Assembly: GCA_018238625.1 (NCBI GenBank)
Contig: JABCSY010000037.1
Span: 1-35,481 of the forward strand
DNA: 35,481 nucleotides
Direction of reading: 5' to 3'
Origin: Promethearchaeota archaeon
GTDB lineage: Archaea > Asgardarchaeota > Lokiarchaeia > Sigyniarchaeales > SOKP01
Below are positions 19,988-25,429 of this stretch, in pieces. Every line of letters begins with the position of its first letter. The first letter of the stretch is position 1. A model generated the notes under the pieces. That model was not told where the DNA came from and searched no databases. It saw only the letters and a program-made list of their open reading frames with translations. The position numbers and the translations under genes are program-made.

Positions 19988-21301
19988 TTGAAATATGCTG
20001 ATTGGTTAAATACGAGAGGTTTAGAATATCGCAACGATGTGTTATATTTTGCCGGTATGAATACTTTAGATATCGTTGAAAAGTACGGCACTCCTATTTA
20101 TGTAATTAACGAACAAATGGTTCGTGAACGTTATAAGAAGTTAAAAAAATTTGTAAATTCCGAATATAAAAAAAATCAAATACATTTTGCTGTTAAAGCT
20201 AATTCTACTTTATCGTTTTTAAGAGTGCTCAATTCCGAAGGAGCTTCTTTCGATTGTACATCACAAGGAGAGATATTTACTTGTTTTAAAGCAGGAATTT
20301 CTTCAGAAAAAATAATTTACACCGGAAATATGTTTACTGAAGACGATTTTGAATTCGCCGTTAAAAACGATGTTTTGGTTAATTTAGACAGTTTAAGCCA
20401 ATTAAAACGGTTAGCTGATATTTATGAAAAGCTTGGAAAGGAAAAATTAACGATTTCTTTTAGAATTAATCCCGAATTTGGAGCTGGAGAACACATTCAT
20501 ACCATTACTGCGGGTAAAGATGTAAAGTTTGGCATATTAGAAGGACAAGCAATTGAAGCGTACAGAAAAGCAAAAGAATTTGGCTTTGAGAATTTTGGCA
20601 TCCACCAACATATTGGTTCTGGAATAATTAACGCTTACGATTACGAGAAACCAACTGAAAAATACCTTAATATCGTTAAAACAATAGCTAAAACCCTCGA
20701 AATTAAATTTGAATTTATCGATTTTGGAGGAGGGTTGGGGATTCCTTATCAACCAAAGGAAAAACCGTTAGATTTGAATGTTTACAGCAAAATTGTTATA
20801 AAACCTTTTTTAGAGTTATTAAAATCGGAGGATATAGGCGAACCAGAGTTTAAAATTGAACCGGGACGATATTTATCTGCAGAATCGAGTATTATTTTAA
20901 CGCAAATAAATACAATTAAAAACAATGGGTATAAACTATTTGCCGGAGTTGACGCGGGGTTTAACACTTTATTAAGACCAATTTTGTATGATTCATATCA
21001 CCATATTATACCATGTAATAAAAAGGGTAAAGAAAAATCGTTAACCTACGATGTTGTGGGACCGATATGCGAATCTGGAGATATTCTTGGTAAGAATAGG
21101 GAATTACCAGAATTGAACGAGAAAGAGTTTCTTGCTATACTGGATGCAGGTGCCTATGGCTTCACTATGAGCAGCACATATAATTCCAGACCAAGAACTG
21201 CTGAAATTTTAATCAAAGATGGCCATATTCATAAAATTAGAGAAGCAGAAGCATATGATGATTTATTAAAGAAACAAATTATTCCCGATCATTTGAAATA
21301 A
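19988..21301 (+). CDS. lysA: Diaminopimelate decarboxylase
   Basis: FAVKAN, HQHIGSG, DFGGG, EPGRYL, GPICESGD, GAYGFTMSSTYNSRPR; SD GAGGT with TTG start. Confidence 0.97.
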   Translation: MKYADWLNTRGLEYRNDVLYFAGMNTLDIVEKYGTPIYVINEQMVRERYKKLKKFVNSEYKKNQIHFAVKANSTLSFLRVLNSEGASFDCTSQGEIFTCFKAGISSEKIIYTGNMFTEDDFEFAVKNDVLVNLDSLSQLKRLADIYEKLGKEKLTISFRINPEFGAGEHIHTITAGKDVKFGILEGQAIEAYRKAKEFGFENFGIHQHIGSGIINAYDYEKPTEKYLNIVKTIAKTLEIKFEFIDFGGGLGIPYQPKEKPLDLNVYSKIVIKPFLELLKSEDIGEPEFKIEPGRYLSAESSIILTQINTIKNNGYKLFAGVDAGFNTLLRPILYDSYHHIIPCNKKGKEKSLTYDVVGPICESGDILGKNRELPELNEKEFLAILDAGAYGFTMSSTYNSRPRTAEILIKDGHIHKIREAEAYDDLLKKQIIPDHLK

Positions 21302-21413
21302 GAAATCGCAACAGTTATATTTCATATAAAAGAATAAAAATTTTAGTGATTTATATTATCACGAGATAAAATTATAAAAAAGGAACGTTTAAGGATTGGA
21401 TACCCTTTAGACG

Positions 21414-21484
21414 TTCTAAATGAAGAGTTGGCATTATGAAACCTGTGAATTCAGGTTAATGATAATACTGATCTGCTCTGAGAA
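21414..21484 (+). ncRNA. Box C/D 2'-O-methylation guide sRNA
   Basis: C box ATGAAGA 21420-26; D' ATGA 21436-39; stem AACCTG/CAGGTT 21440-57; C' ATGATAA 21459-65; guide TACTGATCTGCT 21466-77; D box CTGA 21478-81; T-run afterwards; TATA-like TTATAAA at 21372. Confidence 0.75.
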
Positions 21485-21541
21485 TTTTTATAATTTTATC
21501 TTACTTTTTAATATACTATTGATGTATAAAAAAGATTTTAA

Positions 21542-22363
21542 TTACAAACCTAATACTTCGTTTGTAGTATATATTTTGTTTTCTTTTGCTTGTACAATAA
21601 ACTTAATCGCTTTTATGGCGCCTGTTGCGAAGCACGACCTACTATGGGCTTGATGCTTGAATTCAATTCTCTCTCCAGGTCCTGCGTACAGAATAATGTG
21701 ATCACCTATAATATCTCCCGCTCGAATTGAGTGGAAGCCTATTTCATTACGACCGCCAATTTGCCGTTTATTAAATCCCTTATCCCGTCCAAATTTTGCT
21801 ATATCATCAATTTTAACTCCAAGAGATTCACTAACAATTTGTCCAATTTTAAGAGCTGTGCCACTAGGGGAATCTGCTTTACGGTGGTGATGACTTTCAA
21901 TAATCTCAATGTCCCATTCGTTTAAGTACTTCGTCAAAATTTCTGCCATTTTGAATAAAATGTTTACGCCCGTTGCCATATTGGGTGAAATCACTGCTGG
22001 AGCCTTCTTTGTTTTTACAAGCTTTTCGAATTCATCGAGAAAATCTTGAGTCATTGCTGTTGTTCCAATTACGCATTTAATTCCGTTTTCAACGCAGATT
22101 TTGCAATTTTTTTCAGTTGCATTTGCCACGGTAAAATCTACGGCGACATCTGGCTTAGTTTCGGCAATAACTTTTTGAAGATAATTAACATCACTGATTT
22201 TGATTTTGTTCCTATCTTTTACGGCTAAGAGCCCTCCTAATTCTTCGCCTATATTATTTACATCGCAAGCGGCAACTACTTCAATTTCGTCATCTTTTAA
22301 AGCTAATTCACTAATGAGTTTCCCCATTATACCCGTAGGACCTAAAATTAGTAATTTTATCAT
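21542..22363 (-). CDS. dapB: 4-hydroxy-tetrahydrodipicolinate reductase
   Basis: GPTGIMG, VDFT, VIGTT, SPNMATG, EIIESHHHRKADSPSGTA, HSIRAGDIIGDH. Confidence 0.97.
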   Translation of the reverse strand: MIKLLILGPTGIMGKLISELALKDDEIEVVAACDVNNIGEELGGLLAVKDRNKIKISDVNYLQKVIAETKPDVAVDFTVANATEKNCKICVENGIKCVIGTTAMTQDFLDEFEKLVKTKKAPAVISPNMATGVNILFKMAEILTKYLNEWDIEIIESHHHRKADSPSGTALKIGQIVSESLGVKIDDIAKFGRDKGFNKRQIGGRNEIGFHSIRAGDIIGDHIILYAGPGERIEFKHQAHSRSCFATGAIKAIKFIVQAKENKIYTTNEVLGL

Positions 22364-25355: not shown

Positions 25356-25429
25356 GGGAGGGTGGTCTAGCTTGGTATGATTCCTGGTTTGGGACCAGGT
25401 GGCCGGGGGTTCAAATCCCCCCTCTCCCA
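25356..25429 (+). tRNA. tRNA-Pro (anticodon TGG), intronless, CCA not encoded
   Basis: Acceptor stem GGGAGGG/CTCTCCC; anticodon stem CCTGG/CCAGG with loop TTTGGGA; T arm GGGGG-TTCAAAT-CCCCC; TATA-like TATATAAA about 30 nt upstream. Confidence 0.97.

Follow-up and report, generated by a model that had tools for sequence, protein, structure and literature searches.

The window, i.e., the whole stretch of 35,481 nt that we analysed, carries a compact RNA-like element on the + strand between lysA and the convergent dapB gene (Table 1). A first-pass annotation, made from the letters alone, had proposed that this intergenic region hides a box C/D guide sRNA. The position between two convergent genes was confirmed by protein profiles, since TIGR01048 matched lysA and TIGR00036 matched dapB. 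On re-reading the sequence we found every element of the annotation in its stated place, i.e., four boxes, two spacers, an internal stem of 6 bp and a T-run. Together they span positions 21420-21489, and the core from the C box to the D box is 62 nt long. The annotation had also described a canonical k-turn at the C' and D' boxes, and this geometry holds on paper. The GA of the D' box AUGA lies directly 5' of the stem AACCUG/CAGGUU, while the opposite strand is made of the stem, the 3-nt AAU and a GA.

Table 1. Genes, boxes, guides and helices of the lysA-dapB region, in window coordinates.
Feature	Position	Strand	Remarks
lysA	19988-21301	+	same strand as the sRNA; TIGR01048, 430.7 bits
P1, 5' strand	21363-21379	+	17-18 bp long-range helix closing the whole unit; RNAalifold; partner 21486-21502
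P2 hairpin	21383-21417	+	covarying stem, near-invariant top YUGGAUACCC; alifold core 21387-21394 / 21405-21412
C box AUGAAGA	21420-21426	+	
D' spacer GUUGGCAUU	21427-21435	+	9 nt, doubtful guide
D' box AUGA	21436-21439	+	
P3 hairpin between D' and C'	21440-21457	+	6-bp stem AACCUG 21440-21445 / CAGGUU 21452-21457
C' box AUGAUAA	21459-21465	+	(A)UGAUAA counted from 21458, AAU directly 3' of the stem
D guide UACUGAUCUGCU	21466-21477	+	12-nt C'-D spacer; core ACUGAUCUGC at positions 2-11, counted from the D box
D box CUGA	21478-21481	+	
T5 run	21485-21489	+	
P1, 3' strand	21486-21502	+	U-rich, overlapping the T-runs; reverse complement of 21363-21379
dapB	21542-22363	-	convergent; TIGR00036, 257.8 bits

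The layout of the boxes is unique in the genome. A strict regular expression describing it matched the 4.29-Mb genome once, at this locus, and the reversed genome not at all. A looser expression gave six matches in the genome against two in the control, and only the match at this locus had a guide that pairs with rRNA. We also searched the whole genome (G000) for a single-guide C/D pattern and obtained 188 matches against 79 in the control. Complementarity to rRNA was present in five of the former and two of the latter, and one of the five is no more than the antisense strand of the 16S gene. By these crude scans, the element is apparently the only dual-box C/D RNA of the genome. Since the genome thus seems to be very poor in canonical C/D sRNAs, the element is probably under strong selection.

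In a scan of Rfam, the weak matches were nearly all to box C/D families (snoZ105 with 14.9 bits, SNORD60 with 14.4, sR44 with 11 and an E-value of 0.69, and sR2 with 8), but no C/D family reached its gathering threshold: they scored 8-15 bits against thresholds of 42-45. A lysine riboswitch or another known cis element was discarded as a candidate, as neither gave an Rfam match. The only match above threshold in the window was a tRNA gene (25356-25429, + strand; RF00005, 60.4 bits), which ARAGORN classed as tRNA-Pro(UGG). The same program found 12-19 tRNAs in the genome, many of them with introns. One intron-containing tRNA-Ala is encoded just downstream of the 16S gene (G000:C22:44588-44690, - strand).

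Conservation of the element in Promethearchaeia

Within the genus, blastn identified the element in 20 of 24 genomes; in the 16 genomes from other genera it gave no match (E < 0.01). A covariance model built from 20 sequences (R1) reached much further and matched 107 of the 151 genomes of the order, i.e., 105 of the 131 genomes of the same family, the one genome of a second family and none of the 18 genomes of two others. With a broader covariance model (R2), we matched 18 of 25 genomes of the family and obtained a single weak match in 26 other families of the phylum. The relatives are MAGs of Promethearchaeota or Promethearchaeia, i.e., of the Asgard/Loki lineage. The proximity to dapB recurs: in 17 of the 39 dapB loci, the R1 match lies just past the dapB stop codon, on the opposite strand.

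We compared 40 distinct homologues, of which 37 could be parsed. The annotation had made its reading dependent on the conservation of the boxes in relatives, and this conservation is strong. The UGA is invariant in both the C and the C' boxes, and 36 of the 37 sequences have CTGA as their D box. The C box most often reads ATGAAGA (24/37) and rarely the canonical ATGATGA (3/37); similarly, the C' box is ATGATAA in 23 homologues and ATGATGA in two. The D' box is ATGA in 34/37, and the G.A dinucleotides of all four boxes are conserved. Spacer lengths are equally stable, with 12 nt before the D box and 9 nt before the D' box, each in 34 of the 37 homologues. The core of the D guide, ACUGAUCUGC, is found without any change in 30/37, whereas positions 1 and 12 of the guide vary freely (T23/A10/C3/G1 and T21/G7/A6/C3, respectively). 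Such a pattern is what one would expect of a C/D guide that forms a duplex of no more than about 10 bp. Archaeal guides are described as being 10-12 nt long and as following the N+5 rule (PMC7994747), and the substrate channel is described as limiting the guide duplex to 10 bp (PMC8817022).

The internal stem (P3) is conserved as a structure. In alignment A2, which was fitted to the covariance model, 91.4% of its cells are paired and all six pairs change on both sides; none of 500 shuffles equalled this. In alignment A1, a MAFFT alignment of congeners, 95.4% of the cells are paired. The covarying 6-bp stem brings the C' and D' boxes, which are able to form a second G.A motif, together into a k-turn-type motif. 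Considering both the unique match of the strict layout, against none in the control, and the conservation with covariation in more than 100 genomes, we conclude that the sRNA is not a product of chance. All the tests made at the level of sequence supported the assignment of the lysA-dapB element to the box C/D guide sRNAs, with a D guide that addresses helix 34 of the 16S. A full-text literature search returned no paper on box C/D sRNAs of Asgard archaea. This is a genuine, conserved and previously undescribed family of box C/D sRNAs of Promethearchaeia, and its scaffold is unusual.

Helices flanking the C/D core

The core is part of a conserved unit of around 140 nt that the annotation had not described, and in which RNAalifold predicted three helices (P1, P2 and P3) from 26 sequences of 10 genera. 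Several pairs of P1, the helix that closes the unit, switch between A-U and G-C by changes on both sides, and one genus has retained the complementarity with a P1 sequence that is unrelated and contains GC. In the 16 pairs of P1 we counted 15 cells with G.U or U.G and none with A.C or C.A, an asymmetry that points to a helix of the + strand RNA rather than to a DNA repeat. The stem of P2 covaries strongly, e.g., pair 41-66 of alignment A4 is GC in 11 cases, UA in six, AU in four and GU in two, and its top contains GGAUACCC, which is invariant in this alignment. The P1 motif has 40 loose matches in the genome, with one inverted pair, and the P2 motif in its context occurs once. We considered P1 as a repeat family or as a signal shared between sRNAs, and rejected both ideas because it is unique in the genome. 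The P2 loop was also considered as an element pairing with rRNA. Its best matches, 8/10 in the 16S and 9/10 with two G.U pairs in the 23S, were not convincing.

The gap between the D box and P1 is 2-6 nt and that between P2 and the C box 2-3 nt; this spacing places the C/D motif at a three-way junction. The scaffold made by P1 and P2 thus elaborates the C/D fold. A conserved terminal stem beside the C and D boxes is absent: the adjacent flanks are neither conserved nor complementary, and P2 is inserted on the 5' side. Many archaeal sRNAs do without a terminal stem. The sRNA would be made as part of the 140-nt unit or would stay within it, and P1 and P2 may stand in for the terminal stem that is usual in such RNAs, or serve as a signal for processing. 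Contigs of three metatranscriptomes from the same study gave no match over positions 21300-21560, which speaks neither for nor against expression. The literature on k-turns knows the concept of the k-junction. If P1 and P2 are retained, they may constitute a k-junction-like scaffold where the terminal stem would otherwise be; they may equally be cut off in processing.

Some genomes encode more than one copy of the element. A second, partial copy is found around 1.4 kb downstream in G016 (L003:1510-1581 and L003:2969-3040) and in G020 (L004:606-675 and L004:1967-2038). These partial copies extend from just before the D' box to the end of P1, are 95-100% identical, and lack the C box and P2. Between the two copies of G016, on the opposite strand, lies a 372-aa gene with Cys-rich 4Fe-4S-like motifs (L003:1738-2856), and the partial copy follows a short degenerate repeat of the 3' end of the sRNA. 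Three copies occur within 5 kb in G064 (L066:1501-1572, L066:1110-1187 and G064:C10:324802-324856); in the one most similar to the copy of the window the D box is mutated to CUAA, and CUGA is retained in another that has diverged further. Two copies each were found in G059, G065 and G148.

The D guide and its predicted target in 16S rRNA

The first-pass annotation had predicted that the D guide pairs with helix 34 of the 16S rRNA over at least 10 nt, and that the nucleotide selected at D+5 is the first G of CAGGUC. Positions 1154-1166 of the organism's own 16S gene (contig C22) read GGCAGGTCAGTAT, and all 13 of them pair with (A)UACUGAUCUGCU, by 11 Watson-Crick and two G.U pairs. The 12-nt guide itself pairs with positions 1154-1165, and its fifth nucleotide from the D box, C21473, lies opposite G1158. 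The N+5 rule thus selects G1158, which is the predicted first G of CAGGUC, and the pair at this position is a Watson-Crick C-G. By alignment with the 16S of E. coli, G1158 corresponds to E. coli position 1197, in helix 34. This alignment was anchored on three primer sites (515, 907 and 1392); the E. coli copy that we used (L143, NZ_CP091773.1 484152-485668) is 25 nt short before the 515 site, a constant offset for which we corrected.

The helix-34 site is the single best match of the D guide in the organism's 16S and in the 23S of a congener (G016), which we used because no 23S is assembled in the genome of the window. Among 2000 shuffled 12-nt guides, 24 reached 12/12 pairs with at least 10 Watson-Crick pairs, i.e., about 1% by this test taken alone. 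The target site is identical in the eight congener 16S genes that cover it, out of ten loci examined, of which one is truncated and one, a divergent copy, matched no probe; the site is also present in the Rfam consensus of the archaeal SSU. The genome G014 has a second, divergent 16S gene adjoining a 23S gene (L031, G014:C263:2265-3749), which could not be matched with any of the three 16S probes, even with six mismatches allowed. This genome may be a mixed bin. In most genomes, the core of the D guide keeps its G.U wobble beside the target nucleotide. Two observations, independent of each other, speak for the helix-34 target, namely a change of the guide in G073 and modules in other families. 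In G073, the wobble U is replaced by a C, giving a Watson-Crick pair with G1159; in this genome, as in G080 and G105, the 16S gene is not assembled.

We searched 400 genomes of the phylum with a 22-letter module pattern composed of a C'-type box, one base, the guide core with Y at the wobble position, one base and CUGA. The pattern was present in 95 genomes, including 87 of the 134 of the family and the one genome of the second family of the same order, and the reversed pattern was present in none of the 400. It was also found in two families of other classes, in 5/6 and 1/1 of their genomes. There, the core is ACUGACCUGC, which forms Watson-Crick pairs throughout with the 10 nt of 16S that the D-guide core addresses and selects the same nucleotide at N+5. 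In these families the module seems to occupy the C-D' half of another C/D-like RNA. The loci concerned are L198-L202, e.g., L200 (G215:C180, ~21856-21877), and L228 (G160:C275:35586-35607). The order in the other families is guide, CUGA, short hairpin, a second C-like box (AUGAGGA or AUGAUGA), a second spacer of 12-13 nt and a degenerate D box. The second spacers had no clear match in the rRNAs that were compared. At least three Asgard lineages thus seem to address one and the same nucleotide of the 16S.

The genome encodes fibrillarin (265.7 bits) and Nop5 (208.7 bits) in adjacent positions on contig C121, and L7Ae on contig C136. In the mechanism that we propose, L7Ae would bind the two G.A motifs of the sRNA, and Nop5 and fibrillarin would assemble there. 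The D guide would form a duplex of about 10 bp with the 16S rRNA, and fibrillarin would then 2'-O-methylate G1158 on the A-site/mRNA-channel face of helix 34. The most probable role of the sRNA is to guide 2'-O-methylation at G1158 of the 16S (E. coli 1197), and an Asgard box C/D sRNA gene whose D guide directs this methylation in helix 34 is, in our judgement, the likely explanation of the locus and the best one.

In the other half of the sRNA, the D' spacer has 22 different sequences among the 37 homologues. Its best match in rRNA is the 530 loop, with 10/10 pairs of which three are G.U, and 451 of 2000 shuffles equalled it. The N+5 nucleotide of this candidate would be C471 (E. coli 518), and a mutation of the D' guide in G015 hits precisely the N+5 pair. 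Helix 18 of other archaea is described as a hot spot of methylation (PMC4644070). We rejected 16S positions 1077-1083 as a target of the D' guide (seven Watson-Crick pairs), because this site varies between AAC, ACC and AGC among congeners with the guide unchanged. The 5' half of the sRNA, i.e., the C box, the 9-nt spacer and the D' box, is probably only structural and its D' guide not functional.

Alternative explanations

The real target of the D guide, or an additional one, might be tRNA-Ala, in which the core would pair with D-arm positions 7-16 and the N+5 nucleotide would be G10. The tRNA-Ala(CGC) on contig C164 pairs with the core over 10/10 positions (nine Watson-Crick and one G.U), and the same D arm is found in the tRNA-Ala with an intron that follows the 16S gene. 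This arm, GTAGATCAGT, is kept in 13 of the 26 tRNA-Ala genes of the family, most variants, including the commonest, still pair through G.U, and at the two positions that differ between tRNA-Ala and 16S the guide has a G and a U, which are able to pair with both. However, 7 of the 26 D arms would need three G.U pairs in 10 bp, the one of G105 has two mismatches, and the pairing with tRNA-Ala ends at 10 nt where the organism's own 16S gives 13. The C in the guide of G073 is Watson-Crick to the 16S but would face A11 of the tRNA-Ala of this genome as a C.A pair, and the modules of the two other families carry the same C. These observations favour the helix-34 target and leave tRNA-Ala unlikely. 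A 2'-O-methyl at G10 is not known as a modification of tRNA. One may also accept the binding of helix 34, or of another partner, and doubt the methylation, in which case the sRNA would be a folding chaperone or an orphan C/D-like RNA with its main function in P1 and P2. The P2 loop is indeed as invariant as the guide, the architecture is atypical in having no adjacent terminal stem and a D' spacer of 9 nt, and conserved guide-target pairs incapable of methylation are described in Pyrobaculum (PMC6009581). We nevertheless find this quite improbable, given the Watson-Crick C-G pair at N+5, the canonical distance of 12 nt between C' and D and the conservation of the four G.A dinucleotides; the P2 loop has no good complement in rRNA.

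The remaining explanations dispense with a guide RNA altogether. The unit lies 62 nt past the lysA stop codon, on the same strand, ends in T-runs and, as mentioned above, recurs just beyond the dapB stop codon in relatives (17/39 loci), as one could expect of a cis-acting 3' element, i.e., a terminator or stabiliser, of lysA or dapB. Its 17-bp flanking inverted repeat and the extra or partial copies of a few genomes could alternatively be those of a MITE-like remnant with terminal inverted repeats, and sRNA elements of this MITE-like kind, with an inverted repeat on either side, are reported from Pyrobaculum calidifontis (PMC6009581). Yet, a terminator leaves the invariant C/D boxes and the 10-nt block complementary to the 16S unexplained, and the P1 of one genus is quite different and GC-containing but still complementary. 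As for a mobile element, the excess of G.U over A.C in P1 indicates an RNA helix and not DNA repeats, and there is usually one copy per genome. The single inverted pair of P1 motifs and the unique P2 motif show that the element is not a multicopy MITE like that of P. calidifontis. We therefore hold a cis-acting element or a MITE-like remnant to be very unlikely. Finally, the ATG of the C box opens a 77-codon frame (21420-21653) that is present in the mechanical list of open reading frames, and to a real gene here we give practically no credence. The frame runs antisense into dapB, and conservation tracks the boxes and stems instead of the codons. Loop insertions of 1, 2, 5 and 14 nt occur inside it in the homologues, and such differences in loop length exclude it.

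Comparison with archaeal and eukaryotic guide RNAs

The box C/D guide sRNA that we propose has the order C-D'-C'-D in common with the archaeal sR families of Pyrococcus, Sulfolobus and Pyrobaculum, together with the 12-nt guide upstream of the D box, its complementarity to rRNA and the Watson-Crick pair at N+5. Like for other archaeal box C/D sRNAs, the genes for L7Ae, Nop5 and fibrillarin are present and the gene lies near the 3' ends of protein genes. It departs from them in its non-canonical C box (AUGAAGA against the archaeal RUGAUGA) and in its D' spacer, which has 9 nt where archaeal sRNAs have about 12 nt on both sides; its D spacer has 12 nt. The link between D' and C' is a covarying k-turn stem of at least 6 bp, whereas archaeal sRNAs have a k-loop linker of 3-9 nt. 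Unlike in the sR families, the core lies inside the P1 helix, 3' of P2. The MITE-like sRNA elements of P. calidifontis likewise have a C/D sRNA-like core with flanking inverted repeats (Lui et al. 2018, PMC6009581). These are described as present in 15 copies per genome (PMC6009581), whereas the Asgard sRNA is mostly found in one copy, in synteny with dapB across genera, and its flanks, unlike theirs, behave as a helix of the + strand RNA.

A nucleotide of helix 34 is 2'-O-methylated in eukaryotes. It is described as Gm1428 in yeast, Gm1490 in human and Gm1431 in Arabidopsis, guided respectively by snR56, U25 and snoR19 (PMC2794176, PMC8817022, PMC3511168). Equivalents are also described in Dictyostelium (Gm1506), Neurospora and Plasmodium; the site is in the decoding centre, and the corresponding clan CL00049 (RF00054/RF01188) has been traced to LECA (PMC2794176, PMC8817022, PMC3511168, PMC2780460, PMC2656528). 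Table 2 of a plant-centred review gives no P. abyssi or E. coli counterpart for Gm1490/Gm1428 (PMC11542601). SNORD25, snR56 and AtsnoR19 guide the methylation of a helix-34 G, and G1158, the predicted target of our sRNA, lies in the same conserved strand. Many snoRNAs also resemble the Asgard sRNA in that one guide is productive and a stem lies between D' and C'. In the Neurospora counterpart, the guide is described as lying upstream of D' (PMC2780460), whereas in the Asgard sRNA it lies upstream of D.

The first-pass annotation had equated the target with Gm1428/Gm1490. The part of this claim that concerns helix 34 is borne out by the alignment, which gives E. coli 1197, while the register at the level of the single nucleotide is a probable one, taken from a count along the yeast 18S sequence. 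By this count, G1428 would fall on the first G of CAGGUC, the nucleotide that is G1158 in the Asgard 16S; the count also fits G1572, G1575 and C1639. It is thus quite likely that G1158 and yeast G1428 are the same nucleotide, and G1158 is probably the counterpart of the pan-eukaryotic Gm1428 (yeast) or Gm1490 (human). Put in more general terms, the predicted target looks like a position at, or next to, one that is methylated with its own guide RNA in all eukaryotes studied. Neither RF00054 nor RF01188 was among the Rfam matches up to E = 10, and when the antisense of the 16S target was scanned against Rfam, the SSU model alone was reported. Common descent of these guides cannot be demonstrated because they have only 10 nt in common, which are dictated by the target and would be the same under descent and under convergence.

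The rRNA methylation sites that archaeal sRNAs are known to have in common with the snoRNAs of eukaryotes are very few. One clear shared case, sR12/SNORD43, and a few weak ones are described by Hoeppner and Poole, with homology not demonstrable (PMC3511168). It is conceivable, if rather doubtful, that the methylation of the helix-34 G and a dedicated C/D guide for it predate eukaryotes and survive in several Asgard lineages, so that the sRNA and the modules of the two other families would be archaeal counterparts, possibly true orthologues, of the SNORD25/snR56 clan. If this is true, the sRNA would already be snoRNA-like, with a single guide that works, a k-turn on the internal stem, and a three-way, k-junction-like scaffold made by a long closing helix and an extra hairpin. 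The guide is kept across the whole Promethearchaeia family, with modules in two more, and the existence of snoRNA-target pairs before eukaryogenesis is now testable.
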